This document shows, piece by piece, positions 3,162 to 45,460 of a DNA stretch of 56,779 bases (positions are counted from its first letter, which is position 1; each line of letters opens with the position of its first letter). The translations under genes were made by a program, and so were the position numbers. This stretch comes from Nanobdellota archaeon (GTDB lineage Archaea > Nanobdellota > Nanobdellia > JAAOXT01). The DNA lies in NCBI GenBank assembly GCA_018221045.1, contig JAAOXT010000015.1, positions 1 through 56,779 of the forward strand, in the 5' to 3' direction. The notes beneath the pieces are model-generated. The model was not told the DNA's origin. It saw nothing but the letters and a program-made list of their open reading frames with translations, and searched no databases.

Positions 3162-3509
3162 GGGCGGGCTGTAGCCCGCTTTTTGTTCAAGAGAGGCATT
3201 CTACTAAGCGACTACTTTATTGCACCTCAAAAAACTTCATTGTCAAGTTCTTGAGGGTTCGAGTCTTGCACCAGCCGGGTCGACCGTTTCACCAGCGATT
3301 ATTATTCGGGGATTTCTGCTTTTCAGCTTCATCACGTTTCCCGAGTGCTGTATCGTTTCTGCTTCGTTGCCACCTTTTTATAGGTTTTCGGCTTTTTTGT
3401 TGGTGCACAAAAAGTTCATTACTTTTTGGCACCCCAAAAATCCTTGGATTTTTGTTGGTGTGCGGAACTTCCTCAGTTCACAGGGAACCGTTAGCCTCTC
3501 AGCCCGCCC
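3162..3509 (-). ncRNA. rnpB: RNase P RNA
   Basis: Terminal P1 pairing GGGCGGGCUG/CAGCCCGCCC. Conserved GAGGAAGUUCCG (CR-I), UGAAACGG, GCAAG and AACAAAAAGCGGGCUA (CR-V). Confidence 0.92.
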
Positions 3510-5525: not shown

Positions 5526-5622
5526 TCTTATTCATTTAGTTTTCAATGTTTTTTATTGCTATCGCTACCAGTTGTTTAAAAAAAAAATTTTTAACCCTTG
5601 TTTTAAATCCTGGGTTAAATTG

Positions 5623-5694
5623 GGATTATCAATGAAGACTAGCATGAAGTGGTAGTAAAACTTTGATTTAGAGCTGTGCCCTAAAAATGGTTCA
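5623..5694 (-). other. 3' arm of pre-23S processing stem
   Basis: Imperfect inverted repeat of 8832-8903, e.g. ATGAAG-CTAGCAT-AAGTGGTAGTAA vs TTACTACCACTT-ATGCTAG-CTTCAT. Confidence 0.8.
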
Positions 5695-5736
5695 TTCAAA
5701 AAAAAAATGTTTTTCTTGAAATGATTTCTTTTTTTT

Positions 5737-8700
5737 GTTGATTTTCGAGCGATTAGTGGTGGCGAGCTGAACACGTTACCGTGCTTACACTCCCACTCTA
5801 TCAAACCCGTCTTTTAACGGGTGCTCTCAAACATTGCTTCTTTTCGCGGAGGGTTTCGAGCTTAGATGCTTTCAGCTCTTATCCCGTAGCGCGTAGCTGC
5901 CCAGCTTAACGCCCTGTCGGACGACTGGTTGACCAGAGGCGTCGATTCTTCGTTCCTCTCGTACTAAAAGAACCTTCCACTCAAGCAATGAACACTTCCA
6001 GCAGTTAGAAACCGAACTGAGTCGCCCCGTTCTGAACCCAGCTCACGATCCCTTTTAATCGGTGGACACCCGCACCCTTGGCCGCTTACAGCCAAGCCTT
6101 TCTTGGGTTTGAGCTAGTGTAATCGGGTGAGGTTAAAAAATCAGCGGGTGACGCTGAATTTAGTCCTCTCTAGATATACGACTAGATTGTATAGTTTTTA
6201 GTCAAGTAAGACCCGTTTTCTGCACGGCCAGGATAGGAAGAGCCGACAGCGGGGTACCAAGCCTCGAGGTCGATAGGAGCTTTTGCCCGAGACAAGCCTG
6301 TTATCCCCAGGGTAGCTTTTCTGTCATTCCAAGCCCTCAATAATAAGAGTCTTGGAGTTCGCTATGTCCGGCTTTCGCCCCTGCAATCCTCTCTGAACGG
6401 AATGCAGTCAAGCCAGCTTTTGCCATTACACTCTACGTAGGATTTCTGACCCTACTGAGCTGACCTTTGAGCGCCGGTGATGTTTTATCGCCGGCGTGCC
6501 GCCCCAGCCAAACTGCCCACCAACCGCTGTTCCCTTTCGGGTTAGACGTGTAAGTTTTGAAGAGTGGTGTTGCATTGGTGACTTGGACAAAACCGAAATC
6601 TTGTCTTCGACGTCTCCCACTTACTCTACGCAACAAAACCCGCAAATCAACGACAGGCTGCAGTAAAGCTCCTGGGGTCTTTTTGACCCGCTGGAAGTCC
6701 CTGGCCTTTGCACCAGGATGGTGTGTTCGCAGGGTCTCGGTCGGGGACAGTGGGAACCTGGTTACGCCGTTCGCAAAGCCGCCAATTAAACGGCAAGGCA
6801 TTGCGCTTGCTTAAGAAGGTCATAGTTACCTCCGCCGTTTACTGGTCCTTGGATCCGTTGAAACAGATGTTCAGATACCAGCACTGGGCAGGCGTCGGCG
6901 ACTATTCAAGCTGTTTCCAGTTAGCAGTCACCTATGTTTTTGATAAACAGTCCGGCTCCCCTAGTCAGTGCCCCCAGTTACAGCCATCAAACGATGACCG
7001 TTGCTGGGACTCTTTCTACCGAAGATACAGAGCTAATTTGCCGATTTCCCTCGACTCGAGTTATTCCCTACACTCCTTCCCCTGCTCAGGGAGGGCACCA
7101 GTGTTGGTTCTGGGTACGGTCACACGAGATCCTTACCATGAATTTTTCACGGGATCCAAGACTTGATTAAACCCCTCATACAAGGGGCTGGGTTGATTTT
7201 ATCAGGTTCTCACCGTTACAATACTCCCCTGACGCATACAACCAAACAGGGCGACGACCCTGCAAAACCTATCTCAAACCGTTTCATGGTCTTGTGTTGC
7301 CACGCGTACTCGTGTGGTGCAAGAATATTAACTTGCTTCCCTTTTCGGTCTTTCCCGGTTAGGGTTGACCTTAGGACCGACTAACCCTTGGATGACGACC
7401 ATTGCCAAGGAAACCTTGCCCTTACGGAGGAAAGGATTCTCACCTTTCTAAGTTGCTACTACCGACAGGATTCTTACTTCTGAACGGTCCACAAGTCCTT
7501 ACGGCCTTGCTTCTGTCCGAACAGAACACCTCGCTACCTGACCGCGCTTACGCGCGACCACCATGGTCTCGGCGGTTTGCTTAGCCCCGTCCATTTTCAG
7601 GGCATCCAACCTCGGCGGGTGAGCTGTTACGCTTTCTTTAAAGGATGGCTGCTTCTAAGCCTACCTTCCCGCTGTTTTAGGATTAAAACCCTTTTGATGC
7701 ACTTAGCAAACACTTAGGGGCCTTAACCACGGTCTGTGTTGTTCCACTCTCGGGATCCCGGCTTACCCGGAACCCCCGACTCCCGCCATCTACGATTATC
7801 AAGGCTTCGGAGTTTGAAAGAATGCCGACACCGTTAGGAGCCTAAACATCCGATCAGTAGCTCTACACCTTGATACATCTCCAGCGAGGCTGGACTAGGG
7901 TCCACTTCGCGAGGAACTAGCTATTGCCGGGCACGATTGGTATTTCGCCCCTACACCCAAGTCAGAGGATCGCATGCACACAGAACCCCTTCAGACCTCC
8001 ATCCCCCGATAGGGGGACTTCATCTTGCTCAGGCGTAGTTCGTCCGGCTTCGAGTCGTGCACTAGTGACTTAGGCGCTATTAACACCACGCCCCTCACCC
8101 AATAAAGGGTTGCGGGCTTCTCGCTTTCGCTTCGACTTTCGTCTCGCCACTAACACACATTCCCTGTCTCGTTATCCAAAAGGAACTCTGCAACCATGAA
8201 ACTTACGTTTCTTTCTGGCCGCAGATTTACCATAACTACTCGGTTTCAGATTCTTTTCACTCCCTTATTTAGGGTTTTTTTCAACTTTCCCTCACGGTAC
8301 TTATTACTCTATCGGTCTCGAGAACTATTTAGGGTTAGAAGTTATTGACTCCTAAATTCACACGAGAATCCCAACTCGTGCTACTCAGGGTACAACTTTT
8401 GGCTTGTCAGTTTGCTCTTACAAGACTTTCACTTTCTTTGGTGGAACGTTCCAGTTCACTTCAGATTCATTGACAAGTCAGTATAGTTGCCCATAACACC
8501 ACATCTGGACTAAATCGCTTCAGCCCATTCAGTTTGCCCTGTTCCGCTTTCGCTCGCCGTTACTGACGGAATCTCTAATTGATTTCTTTTCCTGCGGGTA
8601 CTAAGATGTTTCAATTCCCCGCGTTACCCCTTAAAACCTCCGAAGAGGCTTAAGTAACCTCGAAAGGTTAAGATGCCTTATTCAGGAATCCCCGGATCAA

Positions 8701-8795
8701 AGAATGCATGCTTCTCCCCGGGGCTTATCGCAGCTTGCCACGCCCTTCCTCGAATCTCGAGCCTAGTCATCCACCGAATAGCGTAGTTAATCAAC
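5737..8795 (-). rRNA. rrl: 23S rRNA (contains one intron)
   Basis: Helix 1 GUUGAUU/AAUCAAC, P-loop GUUUGGCUGGGGCGG, GGGGAUAACAGGC and sarcin-ricin loop AGUACGAGAGGAAC. Confidence 0.98.
6086..6217 (-). other. 132-nt BHB-type intron in 23S rRNA helix 91 loop (after ~E. coli 2534)
   Basis: Interrupts conserved CCUGGCCGUGCAGAA|GCGGCCAAGGG. Central helix GCAG/CUGU with 3-nt bulges AA^A and AA^G. Confidence 0.85.
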
Positions 8796-8831
8796 TTATT
8801 TTTTTTTGTATTTCAAAAGATTTTTTTTTGT

Positions 8832-8903
8832 TAAACCTTTTGAGGAACACACTCTACTTCCATTGTTACTACCACTTATGCTAGCTTCATGATTATTAAA
8901 TCC
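8832..8903 (-). other. 5' arm of pre-23S processing stem
   Basis: Complementary to 5623-5694. Confidence 0.8.
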
Positions 8904-8987
8904 GCTTTCACTCAACCATCCGTTTGGGTGTCTGAGCATAGACATTGATTGATTAATCTCTCTAAATCTCGTAAATCAAATAAATAG

Positions 8988-9014
8988 AATCTCAGAGTTG
9001 CCTCATCACCGATT
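8988..9014 (-). other. box C/D-type kink-turn hairpin in 23S leader
   Basis: AAUC-GGU-GAUGAG-GCAA-CUCUGA-GAUU: C box UGAUGA, D box CUGA, 3-nt bulge and GNRA loop. Confidence 0.72.
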
Positions 9015-9070
9015 TTTTTGAACGATCTGTTTCCGTTCAACCAATGCCAACCAGAAATAATTTATTACTG

Positions 9071-9085
9071 TTTAAAAAGGTTTCG
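9071..9085 (-). promoter_or_regulatory. putative BRE-TATA promoter of 23S rRNA
   Basis: Minus strand CGAAACC-TTTTTAAA ~280 nt upstream of the mature 23S. Confidence 0.6.
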
Positions 9086-9180
9086 TTGGAAAATTTTTTG
9101 GAATAGGTTCAGCACACCCTTTTTTATGAACCAAACAACAGTAATATTTAAAAGTATGTCGTAATATAAAGTATGACACT

Positions 9181-9462
9181 ATGTTGGACAAATATCAAAG
9201 AAGGGTTCTTGAGGACAAAAAATACCTCGACGTTTTCAAACTGCTCCCTAAAAATGGAAGAATGACTTTAAAAGAATTAGCAGATAGAGGGAAAAAACCG
9301 TCTTTTTTTATAAAACAAGATATGGAACCTCTTGTTGGAGTGGGTTTGGTTTACCACGTCCCAGAGGATAGGATTTACTGGTTGTCTGAGAATGGAGAGA
9401 TTGCAAGGGAAAAAATTGAGGTCGGAGAGATTACAATAGGGGAACTTGAATTAATGGTTTGA
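9181..9462 (+). CDS. small winged-helix-like protein
   Basis: MTLKELADR...LVGVGLV...YWLSENG pattern typical of wHTH domains. Confidence 0.6.
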   Translation: MLDKYQRRVLEDKKYLDVFKLLPKNGRMTLKELADRGKKPSFFIKQDMEPLVGVGLVYHVPEDRIYWLSENGEIAREKIEVGEITIGELELMV

Positions 9463-9529
9463 TAAGTTTTTGAAAATTATGAAAGCATTACAATAATGTT
9501 TAAAAATATTATTAAGATTTGTTCAAGTT

Positions 9530-9919
9530 ATGGGAGAGGGCTATAAGCATAAAGGAGACAAAGCCAATTTGGGTGTAGACATTCCAAACGTTTTAGGCCA
9601 TGAAAATAAGGATTACAATCTTGGCGACATAACTATTGAAGATAATAGAGTTCTGAAAGGCACGATAGATCTCTCACCTACTTGTGGGAAGGAAAGCGAT
9701 TTGGAGAAAAAAGTTAAGAGGAATCATGGTAGAAGAGCTGTTTTGATTGGTTTGGGAATAACACTTATTACAGGACTTGCTGGGATGGGATTGTTCTCTC
9801 TTGCTCTTGGAGGAGTGACTGGAAGCTGTTATCTTTGTAGTTCCATAGAAGATTCTGAAGAAGAGGAGTACAAGCGTTCTGGAAAGATTCCATTAAGCGT
9901 TTATGAAGACTTTGATTAA
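9530..9919 (+). CDS. hypothetical membrane protein
   Basis: Gly-rich hydrophobic stretch AVLIGLGITLITGLAGMGLFSLALGGVTG. Upstream TTTAAAAA. Confidence 0.55.
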   Translation: MGEGYKHKGDKANLGVDIPNVLGHENKDYNLGDITIEDNRVLKGTIDLSPTCGKESDLEKKVKRNHGRRAVLIGLGITLITGLAGMGLFSLALGGVTGSCYLCSSIEDSEEEEYKRSGKIPLSVYEDFD

Positions 9920-9987
9920 CACCCAAAAAGCTTATTTTTGTTGTATTACAGTAATTATTATTAATAACAAACGCGTCGGTCAGTAAG

Positions 9988-10620
9988 ATGAGCAAACAAA
10001 GTTTTTTTTCTAGGTTTATATCAGCATTTAAGATATTTTTCAAGAGAAAAAAAAAGCTTGCTTTAGGCATTTATGGTCCTACAAACGCTGGAAAAACCAC
10101 TCTTGCGAACAAGATAAGTATGGATTGGACTGGAGAAGAAGTTGGAGCGGTTAGCAGGATTCCTCATGAAACCAGACGAGTTCAGAACAAAGAGAATGTG
10201 CTCGTAGAATGGGAAGGCAAGAAATTAGTCATAAACCTTATTGACACGCCGGGAATCGCTACTAGAGTGGATTACGAGGACTTCATCAAGTTCAAACTTA
10301 AAAAAAAGGAGTCTCAAGAAAGGGCGAGAGAAGCCACGCAAGGAATAATTGAAGCGATTAAGTGGTTGGACAATATGGAGTGCGTTCTGGCGGTTATGGA
10401 CGCGACCAAGAACCCGTTAACCCAAGTTAACTTAACCATTCTCGGAAACCTTGAGGCAAGAGGAATCCCGGTAATCATTGTTGCTAACAAAATCGATTTG
10501 AAAAAAGCCAATCTTAAAAGGATTGAGTCAGCTTTCCCGCAGTACACTGTTGTCGGCATTTCTGCAAAAGACGGGAAGAACATAGAAGGTTTGTATAAAG
10601 CAATATTTGATACAGCGTAA
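9988..10620 (+). CDS. oapA: Era-like GTP-binding protein (OapA-like)
   Basis: G1 GPTNAGKTT, G2 IPHETR, G3 DTPG, G4 NKID, G5 ISAK. ANKISMDWTG and AREATQGIIEAIKWLD match this archaeal family. Confidence 0.85.
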   Translation: MSKQSFFSRFISAFKIFFKRKKKLALGIYGPTNAGKTTLANKISMDWTGEEVGAVSRIPHETRRVQNKENVLVEWEGKKLVINLIDTPGIATRVDYEDFIKFKLKKKESQERAREATQGIIEAIKWLDNMECVLAVMDATKNPLTQVNLTILGNLEARGIPVIIVANKIDLKKANLKRIESAFPQYTVVGISAKDGKNIEGLYKAIFDTA

Positions 10621-10633
10621 AAAATTTGTGTGC

Positions 10634-11038
10634 ATGAAAAAAAAGAGGAAAAAAACTAAGAAAATGGATAAGCTAACACTACACTTCATTCCCTTCGAAA
10701 GGTTCATTAACTTGTCAAGCGATGACAAAACTAGCACGATTCTTGAGTACACTAAGAAAGGTAAAATCATAATCATTGAGTCCTATCTTGACCCTAAAGA
10801 GCAGGCCACACTCATAACAAATGTTATGGGCAATATTGATGGCAAGTACAGCGGGGTTGAAATGATATCTTTTACCAGAAAAGATTTTCAGAAAGATAAC
10901 TCGTTTTACGTTAGATTAAGGAACGCAGCCATAGACTTGCTTTCCGGAAAAAAAGCGGGGTTAACCATTGTAGGACCAGCAAATATTGTTAAAAAAATAG
11001 AGCGGAACCCTGAAATGATAATGCTCTCAATAAAGTGA
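10634..11038 (+). CDS. oapB: DUF2073 family protein (OapB-like)
   Basis: IIIIESYLDPKEQATLI...GVE...GLTIVGPAN...I.RNP, located between the GTPase and Zn-ribbon genes. Start could be 10664. Confidence 0.8.
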   Translation: MKKKRKKTKKMDKLTLHFIPFERFINLSSDDKTSTILEYTKKGKIIIIESYLDPKEQATLITNVMGNIDGKYSGVEMISFTRKDFQKDNSFYVRLRNAAIDLLSGKKAGLTIVGPANIVKKIERNPEMIMLSIK

Positions 11039-11045
11039 TTTTTCA

Positions 11046-11402
11046 ATGCCTCATAGATGTGTTCGTTGTGGAAAAATGTACCCGGATGGCGCGCCAGAAT
11101 TACTTACTGGTTGTGTTGACTGCAAGTCCAGGTTTTTCTTCTTCATTAAAAAAGAGAATTTAAAGAAAGTCAAGTTACCAGAATTGACTTCTAAGGAAGC
11201 GGATCAGGTTGAGAAGGATATTAGAAAGATTATTGGCGTGGAGGATGATGATAAGCCTATCGTGCTGGACCTAGAAACAGTTCAAGTCATCAAACCAGGG
11301 AAGTACGTTATTGATTTGGTGAAAGCGTTCAGCGAGTCAGGGCCAGTGATTTACAAGTTGAAAGAGGGTAAGTACATGATAGACCTCACGCCGAGCAAGT
11401 GA
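11046..11402 (+). CDS. oapC: Zn-ribbon protein DUF2072 (OapC-like)
   Basis: MPHRCVRCG...LLTGCVDCKSRFF and PGKYVIDL...EGKYMIDL. Confidence 0.85.
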   Translation: MPHRCVRCGKMYPDGAPELLTGCVDCKSRFFFFIKKENLKKVKLPELTSKEADQVEKDIRKIIGVEDDDKPIVLDLETVQVIKPGKYVIDLVKAFSESGPVIYKLKEGKYMIDLTPSK

Positions 11403-11449
11403 AAAAAAATCGAAACTCTTAAAAGAGAACGTGTGAAAACAGTTCTTTA

Positions 11450-11704
11450 ATGAAACTCGGAATTGACACTCTTGTTAAAGATTTTTTGGATAGTGTTTAC
11501 CCTAAGTACTGTAAACTGTCAGGTTTTGTCAAGCCGGATAGGTTAGTTTTGAAGATAAAGCAAAACTTGGGTCAGGGTTCGCTTGAAGAAATGCAAGAAA
11601 AAGGATTGAATGGTTCTTTAGACGAGTTCGTTGACATTTGTGGTGGTTGCGCTTATCTGCATAACGAGTGTTGGGGTGCAAGGTACACGCAAAAAACGGA
11701 ATAA
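11450..11704 (+). CDS. hypothetical protein (C-terminal CxxC...C)
   Basis: 84-aa ORF with BRE/TATA-like CGAAACTCTTAAAA upstream. Confidence 0.5.
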   Translation: MKLGIDTLVKDFLDSVYPKYCKLSGFVKPDRLVLKIKQNLGQGSLEEMQEKGLNGSLDEFVDICGGCAYLHNECWGARYTQKTE

Positions 11705-11736
11705 TTATAACATCTACAATGTTTTTTTGTTTAGTT

Positions 11737-12627
11737 ATGGGCTTTTTTGGCAGAAGAAAATTAAACAAGTTCAATCAAATGGGACTAATCCCTGCAGGAA
11801 ACGTTCCTGAGAAAGAATTCTTTGAACAAGCGGAAAAAAGATTGAGGATGACGAAAACGTTAAGAGAACTTTTAGAACTAACAAAAACGCACGATATTGA
11901 CTTGAATGATTTATTTAAACGTGTAGGATTTGATTATCTTCAAAAAAAAATTCCAGTTAAAAAAAGTGAAGATTTTGAGATAATCAAAAGAAAAGAACAA
12001 ATCCTCCCATTAGGTGTTAAAAGACCAGTTTTTAACGAATTCATACTCCGAGATAGAATAATAAACCGTCCCGAGCAACGCTGTTTTGGAAAGTTCTTTA
12101 CTGGTTTGGATTTGATAGCTTATGAAGAGACTGGCTGGCGAGAACACGGCGAAATTAAGAAAAATCGGATAGTTCTTCATGAGAACATTCACGCAATAAG
12201 AACAAATTTTATCGAGCCAGCAGAGTACATGCCAGACGTATTACAATTTCCAGAAATTGTTTGGGGTGGGGCGGAAGCCATAGATATATATGAAAAGAAC
12301 AGGTGGGATGAAGAAGAGAAGGGGGGTCAAAAGTTTTCTACCCCCAGTTTTTTTGACGTGGCGTGTTCTTACATGATTATTAGGGATTCCAGTCCTGATT
12401 TGAATGTTAGTGCCATGGCTGTCAGGATGACTGCTGAAGAAATTTGTTACGCGTCCAGAAAAGCGGTGAGCGACGACCATTATCACGCTGGGTTTTTCAT
12501 GGGTTTTGGAAAGCTGACTGGTAGAATTGAGCAAACTCTTGACCAAACAATTATTGAAATGCGTGACGAAGAATTAATGCCTGAGTACAGGGCGAGAATG
12601 ATTCTTGACGCAGGAAGAATGAAATAA
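11737..12627 (+). CDS. hypothetical protein with HExxH zincin-like motif
   Basis: IVLHENIHAI followed by a downstream GGAEA. Start chosen at the in-frame ATG 11737. Confidence 0.55.
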   Translation: MGFFGRRKLNKFNQMGLIPAGNVPEKEFFEQAEKRLRMTKTLRELLELTKTHDIDLNDLFKRVGFDYLQKKIPVKKSEDFEIIKRKEQILPLGVKRPVFNEFILRDRIINRPEQRCFGKFFTGLDLIAYEETGWREHGEIKKNRIVLHENIHAIRTNFIEPAEYMPDVLQFPEIVWGGAEAIDIYEKNRWDEEEKGGQKFSTPSFFDVACSYMIIRDSSPDLNVSAMAVRMTAEEICYASRKAVSDDHYHAGFFMGFGKLTGRIEQTLDQTIIEMRDEELMPEYRARMILDAGRMK

Positions 12628-12779
12628 ACCTTTTTTTTTTTCGTTAACGAATTGGGAAAAACCCTTGAAAATTAGAAGATTTTCAGGACGCCAAAAACAC
12701 TTGTTTTTGTGGGAAAGAATGTTCACCAAGATTTTTGGTTAAGCTTTTGCCGAGCGAGAGCGAGGGAAAAGGTTAGGAG

Positions 12780-12853
12780 TGGACCCGACGCGATTCGAAC
12801 GCGTAGCCTCCTCCGTGCAAGGGAGGCGATCTGCCAGATTGATCTACGGGCCC
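12780..12853 (-). tRNA. tRNA-Ala(UGC)
   Basis: Full cloverleaf with CCTCC-CT-TGC-AC-GGAGG, G3:U70 and A73. Confidence 0.97.
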
Positions 12854-13215
12854 AAAACTTCGAATCACTTTGGGAAGTGATTCAACTAATTGAGTAATCC
12901 TTTCTTGAGAAGGTTGGTTTTAAAAGTGTTTTGTTGAAAGAATGATTACTTTGATTTATGGCTCTCGCAGGTTAGCGATTAAATTGAGGGATTGCCAAAA
13001 CTCTTACGAGTCGTCTGGCAATCCATTAAATTTTTTTTTTCCCTCCGAGTTGTATTCTCGATTTGACTCATCTATTTCTGTTAATTCCTTTGCTAAGGAC
13101 AAGTCTAATATCTCTTTATTGCGCGCTTTACTTATATATTTTATCGTAAAAGAAGAGTATTTGAAGTTTTTTTTTCAAGAAATTTTTTATAGTACTAACG
13201 ATAATACCTGTTTTA

Positions 13216-13827
13216 ATGGAACGCTTATTAATCGGTTTAGGAGTAGTTGCAGGCGTAATAATTGTTGCGTTGCTCGTCGTGAACTATCTATTGACCCCGT
13301 ACGGGCTTACCGTTTTTGACGTGATAACAATTCTGTTCAACTCTTTTTCGAGTTCAGCATCTCTCCAATCATTTAATTCCATATCTTCTGAAGATTTGGG
13401 GGAAGAGGTTTACAACCAGTTGAGAGACGATAGAATAGATGCGATTAATACTGTTGAATCATGGAGGTCGGACGTGGAGGATGTTAATAATGACCCTGAA
13501 ATGGTTTCAGCAATTAAAGCAGAGTTTGGAGAAGAATTCACGCTTTACATGTTTTCTTATTATTATGCTGACCAATTTAGTTTTAAGGTTTTTGAGTGGA
13601 CCATGTCGCAAGAAAATGGTTTGATAACGGTTTTTGAGGAGGGCATGCCAGAGAGTTACGACGCGACTGTGGAATTGAACAACGAGTTGGTTATTCCTTT
13701 GCTTGATGGAGAGTTAGCGGAGGATGAATTGCTCAGTCAGGTAAAACAGGGAAACGTGAAAATTATTCCAGTAACAATGCTTTCAAAAACCGTCAGTCTT
13801 TTCCAGCGTTTTTCTTCAACAAATTAA
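13216..13827 (+). CDS. membrane-anchored protein, C-terminus SCP2-like
   Basis: N-terminal TM helix. EGMPESYDATVEL...LLDGEL...VKQGNVKI resembles the SCP2 lipid-binding fold pattern. Confidence 0.55.
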   Translation: MERLLIGLGVVAGVIIVALLVVNYLLTPYGLTVFDVITILFNSFSSSASLQSFNSISSEDLGEEVYNQLRDDRIDAINTVESWRSDVEDVNNDPEMVSAIKAEFGEEFTLYMFSYYYADQFSFKVFEWTMSQENGLITVFEEGMPESYDATVELNNELVIPLLDGELAEDELLSQVKQGNVKIIPVTMLSKTVSLFQRFSSTN

Positions 13828-14488
13828 TGATTTCAAGTAATTCTGGAAACTTGTTTATTGAAAAGTTGTGGAATTCGAATTCATGGCCGAAAACTTGGCC
13901 GTACTTGGCTAGCACGGTAGTCATGCCTAGCCTGTTGGCTCCTGCAATGTCTCTTTCAGGGTTGTCGCCGACGAAAATGACTTGTTCTGGCTTAACCTTC
14001 ATCGCTTTCAACGCCTTCTTAAATGGAAGCGGGTGGGGTTTGGACTTGCTGTTTCGGCTTCTGCCAATGACGACGTCAAAGTAGTCTTGCAATCTTAGAC
14101 CACAAATCCTGAGCCATGCCTGTATTATTGGAGCGTCGCTGACCACCCCTAATTTTAAACCCCTTTTTTTTAGTTCTTCAAAAATTGTTTTCACGTTAGG
14201 ATAAGGTTTTATGTATCCTTCTTTTATCCTGCGGTACGCCACGATGCCAGAGCACATTATTTTGTAATCTATTTTTCCAATAGCTTTTTTTAGGAATTTT
14301 TGAAATATTCGCTGGTACTCAATGCCATGGGTTTTGTAGAGTTCGAACATTAGTTCAATCGCTTTTTTTTTGTCCATGCTTAAACCGTTCACTATCATGG
14401 CGTCAACAGCTGCTTCCACGCTTTTGTTCTTCATCGTCGAATAATCGATTAGCGTGTTGTCAAGGTCGAAGAGAACTGCTTTAATCAT
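13793..14488 (-). CDS. HAD-superfamily hydrolase
   Basis: FDLDNTL, VVSD, KPHP and FVGDNPERDIAGA. Confidence 0.92.
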   Translation of the reverse strand: MIKAVLFDLDNTLIDYSTMKNKSVEAAVDAMIVNGLSMDKKKAIELMFELYKTHGIEYQRIFQKFLKKAIGKIDYKIMCSGIVAYRRIKEGYIKPYPNVKTIFEELKKRGLKLGVVSDAPIIQAWLRICGLRLQDYFDVVIGRSRNSKSKPHPLPFKKALKAMKVKPEQVIFVGDNPERDIAGANRLGMTTVLAKYGQVFGHEFEFHNFSINKFPELLEIINLLKKNAGKD

Positions 14489-14562
14489 GATAAAAAAATA
14501 GTTCACGAGTTTTTAATTATCTTGTGGTTAGGCAAGCCTAGTTATTGTTAGAATGAAAGAGT

Positions 14563-14590
14563 TGCATGAATCTTTGTGTAGCGTCCAACC
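14563..14590 (-). other. 3' arm of pre-16S BHB processing stem
   Basis: GGUUGGA-CGCU-ACA-C-AAAGAUUCAUGCA pairs with 16168-16195 to form a 4-bp helix with two 3-nt bulges. Confidence 0.85.
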
Positions 14591-14657
14591 CTCCTGTTGG
14601 AGTGATAATTTGTTTTCCCGTTTCTGCACACGGACCTCACTATCAAAAAATTTTTTT

Positions 14658-16127
<1,470 letters not shown>

Positions 16128-17171: not shown

Positions 17172-17317
17172 TGTAGGGGCTGGGATTCGAACCCAGGAAC
17201 CCACTAAGAGACAGGGTTTCTCACCAACAATCTTCTTTTCCGTCAACGCTTTTGGAGCGTTAGCGAGAAAAGGGTTGGTCCTAAGCCCTGCGCCGTTGGC
17301 CACTTGGCTACCCCTAC
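17172..17317 (-). tRNA. tRNA-Leu(UAG) with 62-nt canonical intron (17218-17279)
   Basis: CAGGG-CT-TAG-G^...^A-CCCTG. BHB helix CUUA/UGAG with bulges GGA and AAA. Long variable arm. Confidence 0.95.
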
Positions 17318-21897: not shown

Positions 21898-22012
21898 TGG
21901 GCCTGTCGTGATTCGAACACGAGACCCCCGGCTCTCTTAGAGCGAGGGAACCCTCCTATGGGGATTCACTGTCATATAAGACCGGTGCTCCACCAGGCTA
22001 AGCTACAGGCCC
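21898..22012 (-). tRNA. tRNA-Ile(UAU) with 41-nt canonical intron (21934-21974)
   Basis: Acceptor GGGCCTG/CAGGCCC-A and CCGGT-CT-TAT-A^...^A-GCCGG. BHB helix CUUA/UAAG with bulges UAU and AGA. Confidence 0.92.
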
Positions 22013-39131: not shown

Positions 39132-42100
39132 TCACTGATATCTTTCTTCAGAATATTCGAAGTTATCAAAGTGATAAGTGGTTTTGGTCATGGTTTTCGA
39201 CGGTGTCGCGTACTCGCTGCCCAGAAAACGCACAAAATCTTCCACGCGACTCCACGAACCAGTTTTTTCGGCGTACAAGTAAAAAACGTTCTCCCTAACC
39301 GCAGGGTATAATTTGAGCTTCAAGTAAGATTCCGTGGCGTCATCCTTAAAACTTGCTGTAGAGTTATGCGCAATCAATAAATCGCAAGGCACTATTACCG
39401 CGAAAACGTAAGAGTTATCTCTTCTGCCAGCAAAAGTCCAGCCATTACTGCATTTGAAAGAAGATTTGGAAACTTTAGCCACGGTATCGTTAAGCACTCC
39501 TTCAACTCTTCCAAAAACCTTCCAAAAATGATCCGCTGAACCGTTAAGCCTGACGCGGGGACTGAACTCCACGATTCTTGAAGCGTTCACAGGAATCTGG
39601 GCATCCACTTTTATGAAAGGTGAATAAGAATTAATGCTGAAAGAATAATTTAGTTGAGGAGTGGTTCCCGAGCCAGCGTTAACCGTTGCGAACAACTTGC
39701 CAAAACGAGTGAGTACAGGGCTTGAAAGAGCAGAGCTATAACTCGCGGACACGTCGCTCATGTCAGTTATCCTTGTTTCAATGTCAAAGGTTCCGGAATC
39801 ATAAAACCAGTTAGCTCCTTCTGACTGAAAATCCTTGCTGGAGAAATCCCATGACCATAAAGGGTTTGAAACGTTCGTTCCGCTAACACTCAGGTTAGAC
39901 GACTGGTCATCCGAACAATCCTTATCAGAATAATAAGCGAAAAAACTGGTTTCACCATCCTCAAAATCGTTCAGGAAAGTTATGTTCAAGCGAGGATTGG
40001 AAGGGTTAAACCAATAATCCTTAGACTCGCTTACACTCCAGCCGTCACCGAGAAGAACTTCCAGTTCAGCCCCTGCCGAGAGTGAAGTCGGGTCAAGCCA
40101 ATAAAACCTTCCAAAAGGTTCTTTAAAACCCGTGAAGTTAAGCTCACCCCAGGATTGACTAATTGATTGGGAGTTGAGAGTGTTACCTTCATAATCCAGT
40201 ATTCGAATAGTGGTGGCCGAGCCAGCGGATATCAATCGCAAAGACATGTTGATGAACGAATCGTTCTCGCCTGCGCGGAACAACAATTTAGGGGCGGGTC
40301 CTTTGACCACAAAGTTTTTCTCGTCCAAAACCAGTTTTGGCAGGCTCGAAGTAATGTTAAACCATTCGGCCCCAGCAACGCTCACGTTATACTCTCCTGA
40401 AACGCCTTTCGAATCAATCGTGTAAGCGGTTCCGTTCCCCTCAAGGTTTGAAGGAGTGGTCGTGGACCCGTCAGGATAAGACACGTTAAAACTTATTACT
40501 TCATTATTTGATTGATTGGTCACTGTCACGGTAAAATTGGTTCCGTTAACGTTGTAAACAGTGAAGTTAGGTCTTAGCGAGCCGTTAAAATAAGTGGTTA
40601 GGACGCTGGACCCAGTATGGTAAAAGCTTGGCTGAGTCAACTTTGTTTTGAAATACTCGTCGACCACGCGAATGCAGGTGGGCCTGGTTTGAGCCTCAAA
40701 ACCCAGTTCTACACTAATCGTCGCGTTATCAACTGGTTCTGAATCAACTGTAAAACCAATCCTTCCAGTAAACAGGGTTTCACTGACTTGATTGAGTTTT
40801 GAGGTCGAGTTAGTCATGGTGGCTGAAGAACTGAAATCTTTGGTGGGAAAACTTATTTTAGCACTGTTATCAGCGTTGTAATAAATTAGGAACGTGTTGT
40901 TAGCGTTTGCTGAAAGGTTAACGAGTAATGAAATGTTTCCTAACGAAGCGCTCTCATCCTCCCAAGATAATTGCCAAGGAATCATGACATGATTCTGGTC
41001 GAACACCGCAAAATTAATGGTTCCTGAAGGGATTTGAAAGTCTTTTGAACTGGAAGTGGAGAACGAAAAGTTGTAAACCCCGTTTTCCACTGCGGAACCA
41101 GTGTTAGTGAGATTTATGCTAGTCCTGTTCCACTGTTGTTTGTTCCAGTCATCTTTGTCAACCTGTTTTTCTATTTTTTCATTAAAAGTGGAATAACTCG
41201 TTTCCAAGGAATAACCCTCATTAATCCCGGAAACTTTCAGGTAATTCAGTGCCGAAGAAATTTTGGAGTTAACGCTTTCCTCATCATTGACGTGTATGTT
41301 GAACTGGTGGCCTAACAAGAAATTGCTGGTTTTTGAGCCGTTAAGGGATTCTCCAAGCATCAAGTAAACAATGGCGTTCACCTGATCGGAAGAAGAGCCT
41401 CGACCAGTGATGTTAGTGAAGTCATTGACGTCCGAGGCCTCCAGTAGTCCTTGGGAGGGTTGAGAGGAGTCGAAACTCCAGTCAGAAATGTTGGTTAAAA
41501 AAACTTTCGCCTCGGTCGGAGTCGTCTTAGCGAATAAACCCCAAAGCCTTCCCGTTCCAGACGCTGAGCTGGTTGAAGCTCCACTGCAGAAATCGCTTAT
41601 TGTCCCCCCATCAACGTCATCGTAATCCCAGTTGTGCTCGCAAGCATGGTTGAAAAGTATTGAGAGGTCGCCTAAACCGGAAGTCGAAGTAGAATTTTTT
41701 ATAGTGATGTTTGCCATGACGTAATCATTGAAGAAAAAGTATTCAATCTTTGAAAACACTGGAGTGCTAGCAGGATTGTTGAAATTATAGGCATAGATTT
41801 TTGCGTAACCGAAAACGGGTCCGCTGGAGTAATCGCTAAGAGTGGTTGTCCCGGATTCCTGCTCGTTCCAAGCGTTGAAAAAACCTTGGCTTCCCGCCCA
41901 CTCATGACTGTTTTGTTTGGATTTGAAACTCGAAATCACTCCTCCTTGATTGAGATCCACTTCCGCTAAGTAAGAAGGAGTGTTGATTATTAGTTTGGTG
42001 CCGTCTTTTTCAACGCTTGTCGTGTTAACAGTTTCTTCTGATGGTATGACGTAGTCTTGAGAGGATAAGGAATTATAGTAGACGTTGATGGTTTGGTTCG

Positions 42101-42503
42101 CGAGCCTGGTGTAGTTCAGCGTGGCGTAAAGAACTCCTTGTTTCGCGGTCAGGTTCTCCCAATGCACTTGAAAAACTTTTTGCTCTGGGGCAAAAACCAT
42201 TAATGAGTTCGTGTCAGTATCGTTTCTCAAGTCAAAACCAATTTTTATTAATCGGTTGGCTGACTCGTTCAGAACTTCTTGAACCTCTATTTTCAAACGA
42301 TAACTTCTTTTGATTTCGTTCCAGTTAAAGGTTTCCGAAACTTTATTCAAGAAACCTTTTAGGTTGTATGCTTTGTTCAAGCTTATCCGCTGAAACTCCA
42401 GTGTCGAGACCTTCAACCCTGGAGGCAGGACTAAATAACTAATTATCGCAGACATAGTTATTATCACGATTATTCCTGTTATCACGAAGAACTGGCCTTT
42501 CAC
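39132..42503 (-). CDS. large secreted pilin-like adhesin with class III signal peptide and repeated DUF2341-like modules
   Basis: GTG start overlaps the upstream TGA and gives MKG|QFFVITGIIVII. S/T/N-rich with many N-x-S/T sequons. Confidence 0.75.
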   Translation of the reverse strand: MKGQFFVITGIIVIITMSAIISYLVLPPGLKVSTLEFQRISLNKAYNLKGFLNKVSETFNWNEIKRSYRLKIEVQEVLNESANRLIKIGFDLRNDTDTNSLMVFAPEQKVFQVHWENLTAKQGVLYATLNYTRLANQTINVYYNSLSSQDYVIPSEETVNTTSVEKDGTKLIINTPSYLAEVDLNQGGVISSFKSKQNSHEWAGSQGFFNAWNEQESGTTTLSDYSSGPVFGYAKIYAYNFNNPASTPVFSKIEYFFFNDYVMANITIKNSTSTSGLGDLSILFNHACEHNWDYDDVDGGTISDFCSGASTSSASGTGRLWGLFAKTTPTEAKVFLTNISDWSFDSSQPSQGLLEASDVNDFTNITGRGSSSDQVNAIVYLMLGESLNGSKTSNFLLGHQFNIHVNDEESVNSKISSALNYLKVSGINEGYSLETSYSTFNEKIEKQVDKDDWNKQQWNRTSINLTNTGSAVENGVYNFSFSTSSSKDFQIPSGTINFAVFDQNHVMIPWQLSWEDESASLGNISLLVNLSANANNTFLIYYNADNSAKISFPTKDFSSSATMTNSTSKLNQVSETLFTGRIGFTVDSEPVDNATISVELGFEAQTRPTCIRVVDEYFKTKLTQPSFYHTGSSVLTTYFNGSLRPNFTVYNVNGTNFTVTVTNQSNNEVISFNVSYPDGSTTTPSNLEGNGTAYTIDSKGVSGEYNVSVAGAEWFNITSSLPKLVLDEKNFVVKGPAPKLLFRAGENDSFINMSLRLISAGSATTIRILDYEGNTLNSQSISQSWGELNFTGFKEPFGRFYWLDPTSLSAGAELEVLLGDGWSVSESKDYWFNPSNPRLNITFLNDFEDGETSFFAYYSDKDCSDDQSSNLSVSGTNVSNPLWSWDFSSKDFQSEGANWFYDSGTFDIETRITDMSDVSASYSSALSSPVLTRFGKLFATVNAGSGTTPQLNYSFSINSYSPFIKVDAQIPVNASRIVEFSPRVRLNGSADHFWKVFGRVEGVLNDTVAKVSKSSFKCSNGWTFAGRRDNSYVFAVIVPCDLLIAHNSTASFKDDATESYLKLKLYPAVRENVFYLYAEKTGSWSRVEDFVRFLGSEYATPSKTMTKTTYHFDNFEYSEERYQ

Positions 42504-43591
42504 CACAAGTACCACATCCTAAGAAGGACTTTAGAATAATCTTTTTCAAGATTTACCAGCCTGCTGATAGAGTGAACATTTGATTTAGGAGAATCCTTTA
42601 GTATTGGAGGGGTTCCACCCCTATTATCCTTTTCAAAATTGATTGTTACGTTGGTGTTGTCATAACTTGTGTTGAGCGTCGAATTATAATCATCAGTGTC
42701 AGAAGTCCCTATTGAGTACGAGAGGTAAAACTCTTTATTGCTGTGATTCATTAATGGAATGAAGAATTGCGTGTCCGCTCTCGTGGAGTTCTGAGGTTCC
42801 CCAACAGATGTTGCAACGCTGGAGTTAACGAGTAAGGAGTTCACGTAAAGTCCTGCGTTGTTAGAATTGTAAGAAGTGGATCCCCCAGCGTAATAAAAGT
42901 AAGCCAAGGTTTTAGTGTTAGCTGGAAGCAAAGATAAGCTGACGTTGACCGTGACGTTCATATCGCTCCCGAAAACAGTTTGATTGGTCACGTTAAGCCT
43001 GTATAATGTATCATCAACCTGGAAAACGAACGCTGACTTGTTAACTGTTTCACCGTTAGTTTTTAAAGATAAATTTGTTATTCCAATGACGCCGTTCTCG
43101 ACTCGCGTGTTGTTAGTTATCAAGTATATGGGAACGCTGTACCAGTTCCAGTCAACATTCCTGTCAAAAGAATACCCGTCAGAGAATACGTGCACAGAGT
43201 TTTTATCCACGTACGAAGGAAAATTGAAGGTTAAGGCAACCGCCTGATCAAAATGATTAATCGTTTTGTTGGTCCCGGCGTCCCACGTCCCGCCAGTGGA
43301 GTTCAAAGTAATTTTTGAGAAATATTCTGCCCGCACTTGATACCCGAACCGTTCAGGCATTATGTAGTATAACTTGTTTTCAAGTGAGCGCAAGTCATAT
43401 TTTTCTAAATCCTGGCTGAGAAGACCTGTTTCATCCAAAGAGTTTAATAGCACTCTGCCAAGCCTTGAAGGGTTTCTTTGAAAACTTTCGGTAGGCGTGT
43501 AAACTCTTTGAGTGAAGTAAACGTAAGAACCCATAAAAAAAAGGATGGTTAGGATGGCCTCCATTGATTTCATAAAACCTTTATTATTCAT
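42500..43591 (-). CDS. minor pilin-like protein (class III signal peptide)
   Basis: MNNKG|FMKSMEAILTILFF, ATGA overlap and a sequon-rich beta region. Confidence 0.75.
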   Translation of the reverse strand: MNNKGFMKSMEAILTILFFMGSYVYFTQRVYTPTESFQRNPSRLGRVLLNSLDETGLLSQDLEKYDLRSLENKLYYIMPERFGYQVRAEYFSKITLNSTGGTWDAGTNKTINHFDQAVALTFNFPSYVDKNSVHVFSDGYSFDRNVDWNWYSVPIYLITNNTRVENGVIGITNLSLKTNGETVNKSAFVFQVDDTLYRLNVTNQTVFGSDMNVTVNVSLSLLPANTKTLAYFYYAGGSTSYNSNNAGLYVNSLLVNSSVATSVGEPQNSTRADTQFFIPLMNHSNKEFYLSYSIGTSDTDDYNSTLNTSYDNTNVTINFEKDNRGGTPPILKDSPKSNVHSISRLVNLEKDYSKVLLRMWYLW

Positions 43592-44382
43592 ATTATCCAC
43601 GCGTTAACCTTAACTTTTGATAAGTATTTATTGTTGTTTTCAACAACGTTCGTGAAAAACTCTTGGTAAACATAATCCTGATAACCCGTGCCAGTTGTTC
43701 CGCAGGAATCGTTCATTTTTAGGTCGCCAACATAAAATTTTGATAAATCCATTCCTTGATTTGTATTAGTGTTCGTGAGAACAACCAAATATTTTTGGGA
43801 ATGCGAGGTAACAAAAATGATGGTGTCCTCATCCCCAGCGGATAAGGAAAGGTTGAAGGAAAAAACTTGGTTGTTAAAAAAATCGGTTGAGTTGGAAATG
43901 TCATCTTCGGATTCAATTCCTGAATTGGTGGATGACACGTAAACGTTTTTAGGGAAAACCAAGTCAAACGAGGCGTTGCCGCTTCCAGTTGTTCTGCCCG
44001 CGCTAATGTTAAAATCGTAGCCGTTAATTATGAACCTGACCTGACCTTCACCGAAATCGCTTCCAAGAGTGTAGTTAGCGTTTTGAGGTAGGGTGAAGCC
44101 TAACAAGTTGTATTCTAAGGAAAGGTTTGAGACAAAATCAAATTCTTTAGTGCATAGGGATTGGAATTCTTCCGAAGTCATAGAATACTTTTCAAGAAAG
44201 GATACGATACTGGTTATTTTTTTTTCGCGGAGCTCGAATTCGCTGGAGTCAGAGAAGGGGGTGACAAGTCTTAGCAAAAAGTTGATTAGGAAAATTATGA
44301 AAAACAGGAATATCAGGTAAGCGACTATGGCGTCAACGTCAACCTGCCCCCGTGACCGCGAGCTGTATTTTTCGTGATTCAT
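43588..44382 (-). CDS. minor pilin-like protein (class III signal peptide)
   Basis: SRG|QVDVDAIVAYLIFLFFII. Confidence 0.72.
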   Translation of the reverse strand: MNHEKYSSRSRGQVDVDAIVAYLIFLFFIIFLINFLLRLVTPFSDSSEFELREKKITSIVSFLEKYSMTSEEFQSLCTKEFDFVSNLSLEYNLLGFTLPQNANYTLGSDFGEGQVRFIINGYDFNISAGRTTGSGNASFDLVFPKNVYVSSTNSGIESEDDISNSTDFFNNQVFSFNLSLSAGDEDTIIFVTSHSQKYLVVLTNTNTNQGMDLSKFYVGDLKMNDSCGTTGTGYQDYVYQEFFTNVVENNNKYLSKVKVNAWII

Positions 44383-45460
44383 CCTTTTCTCCTTCCATTT
44401 TTGCGATTACAAGTACTTCATAAACCCCTACTTCTTGCGGAGCTATCAACGAGTAAGAGAACTCTCCTTGTTCGTCAGTTTTTATTACTTCGGTCAGGTT
44501 CTCTAAGATTATGAATATTTGAGTGTTTGAAACAGGGCTTCCTTCAAGCACTATGCTCCCAGTCAGCTCCGTTTTTTCTCCAGAGGAGAGCACGTTATCA
44601 CTTAGCTCAGCGTTGAAGTCAATGATTTTCGGGTAGATGAGCACTGAGAAAGCCACTAACGCTATAACCAGCATTATGAAGGAATGCTTTACTCCCGCGA
44701 CCACGCTTCCATCCTTGGCCTCTCCTGCCACTAAGCCATTCATGAAAGATTGTATGGTCATTGTTAGGAAAAAAAGTATTTTGAAATAACCTACAGAAGG
44801 CGCGCTCCCTCCGCTGATGAATAACGCTCCTCCAGCACCTCCACCCACAGATAATAATGGGATGAGGATTCTGTAAAGAGCTACGATTATGCCAATGAAC
44901 AAGAGATTGATGATGTAAATAATGGTTATTTGCTCTTTGAGAATAGATTGTCTTTCATTGGCTATTTTTTTGAGCAGGCGAGTGGCTTCAGATACCGAGC
45001 CCATAGCTTCTGAAATAGCGCCTCCAGCGTAGTAGGCTTGAATGACTATTCCTATGGCTCTTCGTATGAAAATACTTTTTTTATTTCTCTTCGCGAAGTT
45101 CTTGATAACGTTTGGCAGAGGGATTCCCCACGACAATTGGTTCGCCATTTTTTTCACGTCTTCATTTAAAGCCCCGTAATCAGTTTTTGTAGCGTTGAGA
45201 ATGGCTATTGGCAGAGTCATGCCTGCTTCATGAGCATCCGAAAGGTTTCTGAGAAATTTGGGCAGGTTATCCTCTTTTTCGGACATTTTTTGCTGATAAG
45301 TGAATTTTAGTATTGACCATGGAACCAAGAATATTGATATTCCTATAACTATGCCATAACCCACTATGAGGATGTCTCCTTGAGATATTATCACCGCGCC
45401 TAGGCATACTAATATGGCGATTGTTCCGAAAACAAGTGTTATTATGTCCTCTTGATCCAT
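44339..45460 (-). CDS. type IV pilus platform protein (T2SSF/TadC-like) with C-terminal Ig-like extension
   Basis: LPKFLRNL...GMTL...YGAL...QLSWG and GLVAG...G....GVKH, plus ~95 extra beta-rich residues containing TDEQGEF. Confidence 0.88.
   Translation of the reverse strand: MDQEDIITLVFGTIAILVCLGAVIISQGDILIVGYGIVIGISIFLVPWSILKFTYQQKMSEKEDNLPKFLRNLSDAHEAGMTLPIAILNATKTDYGALNEDVKKMANQLSWGIPLPNVIKNFAKRNKKSIFIRRAIGIVIQAYYAGGAISEAMGSVSEATRLLKKIANERQSILKEQITIIYIINLLFIGIIVALYRILIPLLSVGGGAGGALFISGGSAPSVGYFKILFFLTMTIQSFMNGLVAGEAKDGSVVAGVKHSFIMLVIALVAFSVLIYPKIIDFNAELSDNVLSSGEKTELTGSIVLEGSPVSNTQIFIILENLTEVIKTDEQGEFSYSLIAPQEVGVYEVLVIAKMEGEKDESRKIQLAVTGAG

Follow-up and report, generated by a model that had tools for sequence, protein, structure and literature searches.

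The contig JAAOXT010000015.1 of a Nanobdellota archaeon (assembly GCA_018221045.1), analysed here over its positions 1 to 56,779 (this whole stretch of 56,779 nucleotides is referred to as the window), carries on its minus strand a 23S rRNA gene that is interrupted in the apical loop of helix 91 (H91). The Rfam model of the archaeal large subunit (LSU) rRNA, RF02540, matches 5734..8798 on the minus strand with 2546 bits, over model positions 1–2987, and in this alignment the H91 loop reads GGCCGUGCAG, then 134 nt where the model has 2, then GCGGCC, which makes a net insert of 132 nt. An earlier, model-generated reading of the same DNA (the initial annotation) had given coordinates, length, helix and an approximate E. 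coli position (~2534) for this insert, and had suggested an alignment to the archaeal LSU model as a check; that alignment fixes the position of the insert and, together with the numbering described below, shows these values to be correct. We interpret the insert as an archaeal intron of the bulge–helix–bulge (BHB) type that has no open reading frame (ORF), in which case the gene is laid out as follows.

5734..8798, minus strand: 23S rRNA gene including the putative intron (match to Rfam RF02540).
6218..8798, minus strand: exon 1, which ends in ...GGCCGUGCAGAA and whose final base is E. coli 2534.
6086..6217, minus strand: 132-nt ORF-less insert, read as a BHB intron, with its 5' end at 6217 and its 3' end at 6086.
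5734..6085, minus strand: exon 2, which begins with GCGGCCAAGGGU and whose first base is E. coli 2535; the A loop lies 12 nt downstream.

The site was numbered against the annotated rrlH gene of E. coli K-12; the landmarks A2660 and G2553 land where expected, and the insert is placed between positions 2534 and 2535 of E. coli. When the whole 23S gene is compared with rrlH by blastn, the insert is the only interruption of collinearity (146 nt against 14). The dinucleotide AA is repeated at both junctions, so that the alignment alone leaves the boundary ambiguous by up to 2 nt. The removal of 6086..6217 restores the collinearity with rrlH and the spacing of the Rfam archaeal consensus, GCAG + 2 nt + gcggCC.

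In the minus-strand RNA the order of the elements is ...GGCCGU GCAG AAA A CGGGUCUU ... AAGGCUUG G CUGU AAG CGGCC..., and their pairings (all on the minus strand, with ensemble pair probabilities) are the following.

6224..6229, minus strand: GGCCGU, 5' strand of the exon helix h (the H91 stem), which pairs with 6080..6085 with a probability of 0.81–1.0, in agreement with the Rfam structure line.
6220..6223, minus strand: GCAG, bases of the H91 loop that form the 5' strand of the central BHB helix H, paired with 6088..6091 with a probability of 0.86–0.90.
6217..6219, minus strand: the 5' bulge, AAA; the 5' splice site is predicted between 6218 and 6217 (read, like its 3' counterpart, from the sequence).
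6208..6215, minus strand: CGGGUCUU, 5' strand of the inner helix h', preceded by the unpaired A6216; centroid fold, pair probability 0.49–0.57.
6114..6185, minus strand: long imperfect hairpin inside the intron, present in both the minimum free energy (MFE) and the centroid folds, which contains a 6-bp GC-rich stem (6141..6157) and then U6 (6135..6140).
6093..6100, minus strand: AAGGCUUG, 3' strand of h', followed by the unpaired G6092; centroid fold.
6088..6091, minus strand: CUGU, the last paired bases of the intron and 3' strand of H, paired with GCAG; its offset is conserved across inserts.
6085..6087, minus strand: the 3' bulge, AAG; the 3' splice site is predicted between 6086 and 6085.
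6080..6085, minus strand: GCGGCC, 3' strand of h; should the U.G pair open, G6085 would double as the third base of the 3' bulge.

The folding was done on 6070..6240, with shuffled controls (n = 200). The MFE is −53.2 kcal/mol, to be compared with a shuffle mean of −38.2 (z-score −3.54), and 0 of the 200 shuffles are as stable. The H91 stem and the GCAG/CUGU helix are kept in both the MFE and the centroid structures, the inner stem also being found in the centroid, and a fold in which the BHB is enforced reaches −53.0 kcal/mol, that is 0.2 above the MFE. The observation of a 132-nt insert with BHB junctions is confirmed: the relaxed BHB described in the initial annotation (a 4-bp GCAG/CUGU helix, the bulges AAA and AAG, and an inner stem) is located pair by pair, and the BHB pairs prevail in the predicted ensemble. 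Cuts at AA|A and AA|G leave GCAGAA|GCGGCC, the consensus mature loop, as had been anticipated from the rule that the splicing endonuclease EndA cleaves 3' of the second nucleotide in each bulge.

The core of this interpretation, which was already that of the initial annotation (a putative ORF-less BHB intron in the H91 loop, with the splice sites listed above), is strongly supported by a comparison with 52 other genomes. A survey of DPANN 23S genes for inserts at the same site had been proposed as a check. We scanned 185,579 species genomes with a pattern consisting of the fixed conserved upstream exon followed by GCAG, in which a base other than C was required at the position of the usual exon-2 C; since the pattern demands a non-C at this conserved position, only genes that are disrupted right after GCAG are found. 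By design the scan misses about one quarter of random inserts, as well as the genes whose upstream exon deviates from the pattern. It returned 54 loci, of which 52 (besides the window) lie in archaeal 23S genes and hold inserts of 22–725 nt at the same site, DPANN-labelled ones included; the other two, L027 and L041, are bacterial chance matches that have no rRNA context. Most inserts are short (39 of 52 are at most 60 nt long), and the smallest (L002, 22 nt) is little beyond a BHB and a 5-bp hairpin.

The lineage assignments of the 52 loci are the record labels as deposited: Woesearchaeota (17 loci), Nanoarchaeota or Nanoarchaeia (11), Thermoproteota (11, under the labels Pyrodictiaceae, Sulfolobales, Desulfurococcales and Pyrobaculum), "Methanosarcinales" (7), Altiarchaeota (2), unclassified archaeon (2), Iainarchaeum (1) and Parvarchaeota (1). 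All come from metagenome bins or single-cell assemblies, and 0 of 52 belong to a named cultured species. By record label, introns recur at 2534/2535 in DPANN, Altiarchaeota and Thermoproteota.

The junctions of these inserts were compared in a unique set of 50, obtained by removing the window row and the duplicates (L029, identical to L014, and L053, identical to L006). A 4-mer that fully pairs with GCAG is found at positions −6 to −3 before exon 2 in 48 of the 50, the background in the inserts being 37/3598 (1.0%). Regarding the inner helix, at least five of its first six positions pair in 28/50 inserts (56%) in the strict register with 3-nt bulges, compared to 5.4% when the partner is swapped, and in 32/50 when four registers are allowed (15.2% swapped). 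The insert sequences are mostly unrelated to one another, so that what is conserved is the structure. L015, L020 and L025 likewise have the first-position mismatch seen in the window, with 8 or 9 helix pairs after it. This logic of sequence and structure, and its conservation across genomes, are direct observations of the present comparison.

The same comparison settles the 2-nt ambiguity of the boundary. In a table of 48 rows (five loci having been dropped by a stricter exon-2 filter; the dropped rows also begin with AA), GCAG is followed by AA or CA in 47; at the other junction, the dinucleotide that precedes exon 2 is free to vary from locus to locus, and eight different ones occur. A fixed 5' dinucleotide and a variable 3' one are what a cut after the second base of each bulge predicts, and this asymmetry decides in favor of 6086..6217.

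The site is also occupied by introns that are presumably mobile. Two genomes labelled Desulfurococcales carry long inserts that encode proteins of the homing endonuclease family LAGLIDADG_3 (PF14528): L011 (662-nt insert, 220 amino acids, E = 3e-20) and L031 (725-nt insert, 211 amino acids, E = 3e-18). No relative of known structure was detected by sequence for the L011 endonuclease at E ≤ 0.001. At their ends, the short inserts L019 and L001 match the termini of the long LAGLIDADG-bearing inserts over 17–18 nt. The intron of the window, with its 132 nt and no ORF, encodes no homing endonuclease; given the same-site introns with LAGLIDADG genes in two genomes, ORF-less copies such as this one are most simply read as endonuclease-less relatives, or as remnants, of mobile introns. 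A search for relatives of the window intron itself gave a single one: blastn-short matches only L054, and the global alignments with nine other inserts of 79–177 nt have z-scores of at most 2.5, so that homology to these was not retained.

L054 (contig JAFCDO010000007.1) is labelled "Candidatus Parvarchaeota archaeon", a label with which the DPANN origin guessed in the initial annotation is consistent. It is an independent assembly, and it carries the identical 132-nt insert. Between L054 and the window, 8 of 2386 positions differ in the 23S exons, 0 of 132 in the insert and about 6–8% in the adjacent gene, the divergence setting in within 50 nt of the 3' end of the 23S gene. At the rate of the adjacent ORF (about 6.9%), the probability of zero changes in 132 nt is near 1e-4. 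Hence the insert is not drifting like the neighboring DNA. Its identity in the two genomes reflects constraint, a recent sweep or gene conversion, which a single pair of genomes cannot separate.

Besides the insert, the 23S gene of the window differs from that of E. coli at usually invariant sites of the peptidyl transferase center and of the A loop: U2500C, A2503C and U2555C (window 6252, 6249 and 6065, minus strand). A2503C is common to 9 of the 53 rows (the window, L054, L016, L020, L025, L028, L035, L044 and L051), and U2500C and U2555C are confined to the window and L054.

As for the ability of the host to splice, two tRNA genes of the window are interrupted at position 37/38 by BHB introns of the textbook 3-4-3 form: tRNA-Leu (UAG) at 17172..17317 and a tRNA with anticodon UAU at 21898..22012, both on the minus strand. 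In both, a 4-bp helix of CUUA with UAAG or UGAG is flanked by 3-nt bulges. These genes imply that the organism must have the splicing machinery. Both were found by Rfam and missed by ARAGORN.

We therefore propose, with a probability of about 0.88, that the insert is an ORF-less archaeal BHB intron in the H91 loop at 2534/2535, which EndA excises and whose exons are ligated. In the pre-23S rRNA, the H91 stem would stay paired, and the GCAG of the loop would pair with the CUGU at the 3' end of the intron to form the 4-bp central helix. The two ends of the intron would pair into the inner helix, and the helices would stack, so that the bulges AAA and AAG would be presented on opposite strands. 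EndA would then cut after the second base of each bulge (after A6218 and A6086), and an RtcB-type ligase would join the exons into a mature hexaloop, GCAGAA, closed by U.G. The intron would be released, probably as a circle.

Several observations weigh against this proposal or limit its reach. The motif of the window is relaxed, and is not a strict hBHBh' with two exact 3-nt bulges (3-4-3): the inner helix starts with an A6216/G6092 mismatch, and U6224 lies opposite the 3' bulge, which results either in a 2-nt bulge beside a U.G pair with G6085 or in a 1×3 internal loop. Across the table, at least four contiguous inner-helix pairs in the strict register are found in only 22 of 48 rows, and in a plain MFE fold the set of four central pairs is complete for just 29 of the 48 unique inserts of at most 200 nt. 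Cleavage, ligation and circularization are all proposed by analogy with established archaeal BHB introns. A Pfam scan of the 54 ORFs of the 56.8-kb window detected neither EndA nor RtcB. The scan of genomes covers disrupted genes only, so that it gives no frequency of empty sites, and several of the record labels look unreliable. Regarding the relaxed motif, passages of PMC5829648 describe relaxed BHB forms as accepted substrates of some EndA types, and report that DPANN lineages have several EndA architectures, among which the enzymes with particular inserted loops cut relaxed motifs.

About the labels, we note that the "Methanosarcinales" contigs (L003, L006, L008, L009, L036, L043 and L053) carry Woesearchaeota-like exons, so that the bin labels may be wrong, and that L014 and L029 have identical inserts under the labels "Pyrobaculum" and "Desulfurococcaceae".

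Another explanation accepts the same BHB evidence and has the insert excised without ligation of the exons, which would leave a fragmented 23S rRNA. In some bacteria, a 23S rRNA that is fragmented at loops and left unligated is tolerated. However, the organism needs the ligase for its tRNA introns, and RtcB joins EndA products in characterized archaea, for tRNA introns and for pre-rRNA circles, according to the sections at hand of PMC3326292 and of bioRxiv 10.64898/2026.03.23.713588. We regard excision without ligation as very improbable.

Alternatively, the insert could be an expansion segment and persist in the mature 23S rRNA. Archaeal rRNA expansion segments exist, the ends of the insert pair in such a way as to extend H91 coaxially, and the insert is perfectly conserved between the window and L054. 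An expansion segment does not explain why the junction geometry is conserved in 48 of 50 otherwise unrelated inserts, nor why the versions found at the same site span 22–725 nt, carry homing endonuclease genes in some cases, and keep the bases of the mature loop on the 5' side only. Moreover, the H91 loop is located in the packed functional core, beside the A loop and the sarcin–ricin loop, where 132 extra nucleotides are unlikely to fit. We give the retention of the insert a slightly lower chance still than excision without ligation.

An assembly artefact or a dead copy of the 23S gene, which the unusual changes U2500C, A2503C and U2555C might evoke, can be set aside almost entirely: the identical insert and the same three changes are present in the independent assembly of a distinct genome (L054), which rules out a one-off misassembly, the event that the initial annotation had named as fatal to its own reading; 51 further genomes have inserts at the site; and the match of the gene to the full-length model reaches 2546 bits.

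A degenerate self-splicing intron of group I or group II is just as implausible: Table 1 of PMC6125680 lists group I introns in DPANN LSU genes at 1923, 1931, 2500 and 2593, but 132 nt are too short for a group I or group II core (the initial annotation had said so for group I), no intron family is found above the Rfam gathering score in the window, nor up to E = 10 in the insert, and the junctions fit a BHB instead.

Coming back to the interior of the proposed BHB intron, a resemblance between its 3' end and exon 1 had led to the suggestion of an origin by local duplication, or of a folding switch. The resemblance itself is real, CUUGGCUGU and CCUGGCCGU being identical at 7 of 9 positions, but neither idea holds as a general feature: over the 50 inserts, the mean identity of the 3' 9-mer to the exon-1 9-mer is 3.76/9 for the insert's own exon and 3.75 for a swapped one, 7/9 being reached in 2.8% of the swapped pairs, and the alternative hairpin, between the 3' end of the intron and exon 2, has an ensemble pair probability of about 0 and costs +6.5 kcal/mol when enforced.

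No known RNA family was retained inside the intron either: the best Rfam matches of the insert have E-values of 2.4–9.7 and at most 13 bits, far below the gathering scores of 39–70, and no C/D-box pattern is seen by eye. Oligo-T is a termination signal in archaea, and the 6-bp GC-rich hairpin followed by U6 (6135..6157, minus strand) contains the sole sense-strand run of at least five T in either rRNA gene. Such runs also occur in 10 of the 50 unique inserts found elsewhere, a count that is unremarkable given the composition.

Many of the 23S genes that we fetched hold extra inserts a few bases downstream of the H91 site, whereas the window has none. They fall into two groups, plus L007; the positions given here are by our own count. 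The genes of the first group (L001, L005, L014/L029, L019 and L021) break off inside the A-loop hairpin after GGGGCU, at about 2550–2552; those of the second (L009, L024 and L045) break off after AUUAAAAG(G), at about 2568/2569; and L007 breaks off after ...GUUGUGA.

In Thermoproteota, the classical 23S intron sites are located in domain IV and close to the A loop. The record of BHB introns in archaeal 23S genes goes back to Desulfurococcus mobilis, whose intron encodes I-DmoI, and two short ORF-less ones are found in Staphylothermus marinus (sections of PMC3608112 and PMC4496867). On the basis of these sections, the likeness to the proposed intron is that a highly conserved region of the 23S rRNA is interrupted, that the junction is a BHB, that a LAGLIDADG ORF may be present or not, and that removal is by the tRNA-splicing endonuclease; the intron of the window differs from the classical ones of Thermoproteota by its host, which is labelled DPANN, by its relaxed motif and apparently by its site. 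It also has the architecture of the canonical BHB introns of tRNA at 37/38 (an exon helix, a 4-bp helix, bulges on opposite strands, an inner helix, and a predicted cut after the second base of each bulge), although the host RNA and the site are different and the tRNA introns of the window are strict 3-4-3 forms.

A third parallel is with the BHB motifs of the pre-16S and pre-23S processing stems, where, as described in parts of PMC7714728, PMC8339473 and bioRxiv 10.64898/2026.03.23.713588, EndA acts on pre-rRNA and the ligase circularizes the products. Those motifs free whole rRNAs from the primary transcript, whereas that of H91 would remove an internal segment, after which the rRNA must be rejoined. 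We note here that the leader and trailer of the 23S gene of the window (5574..5733 and 8799..8958, minus strand) form a long duplex (−81.5 kcal/mol), in which a cursory reading finds only small 1-nt bulges and no clear 3-4-3 BHB. The insertions described in the rRNA genes of the candidate phyla radiation (CPR) bacteria are similar in being frequent and position-specific, in occurring in small-genome lineages, and in carrying LAGLIDADG genes in some cases; in the portion of PMC11270868 at hand they are group I-like or group II-like, or of unknown splicing, and BHB, H91, 2534 and 2535 are not mentioned.

BHB introns have also been drawn beside group I introns in the LSU genes of Woesearchaeota, Pacearchaeota and Micrarchaeota (Nawrocki, Jones and Eddy 2018, PMC6125680). 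The available part of that paper gives positions for group I introns only, so that whether any of its BHB introns sits at 2534 cannot be said, and the corresponding part of its supplement holds nothing relevant for BHB, 2534, 2535 or 2552. A full-text literature search, partial in its sources and which did not cover the classic papers on archaeal 23S introns, found no archaeal intron named in H91 or at 2534; these papers being outside the search, the site cannot be claimed to be undescribed. The mechanism is thus already known, while the site is recurrent and, as far as could be seen, apparently not discussed in print.

Regarding the rest of the window, the 16S gene (14658..16127, minus strand) is unlinked to the 23S gene, at a distance of about 5.8 kb; over 5734..16127, the region between the two contains protein genes (a GTPase, OapB/OapC-like proteins, a HAD hydrolase) and a tRNA-Ala. 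The archaeal RNase P RNA (3162..3509, minus strand, 124.7 bits) has two inserts relative to its model, of 48 nt where the model has 8 and of 40 nt where it has 29. At 39132..45460 (minus strand), three ORFs of 1127, 366 and 264 amino acids, none of them matched in Pfam at E ≤ 1e-5, are part of a run that includes T2SS-F/E-like genes (type IV pilus-type). Last, a side record, L055 (NZ_AP027616.1), is a 2.9-kb circular sequence deposited as a plasmid of E. coli with a 23S rRNA annotation; the end, sarcin–ricin-loop and A-loop motifs that are standard for the 23S rRNA of E. coli are missing from it, and it may be a foreign 23S gene.

The mechanism proposed here is a familiar archaeal one, and a lone intron of this kind would be no surprise; the value of the finding lies in the site. 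At a distance of 18 nt from G2553, a base of the A loop, the H91 loop appears to bear introns in widely different archaea, with at least 52 genomes counted at the species level. For annotation, this matters in that such 23S genes appear over-long or broken to rRNA finders; it is also relevant to LSU primers and probes, to the phylogeny of uncultured archaea, and to the way in which BHB introns spread and decay. The inserts may also serve as a natural series of relaxed BHB substrates for tests of the splicing endonucleases of DPANN archaea. A bolder claim would be that 2534/2535 is an undescribed BHB-intron site spread over several archaeal phyla, with introns that range from 22 nt to endonuclease-bearing ones, and that the 132-nt intron is under sequence constraint; we consider this combination unlikely. 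Were the constraint true, it would be compatible with the intron RNA having a function in its own right, such as that of a stable circle or of a cis element that holds the H91/A-loop region unfolded until late in the assembly of the 50S subunit. The conservation between the window and L054, if it does reflect constraint, would be among the few hints that an ORF-less rRNA intron has a function.

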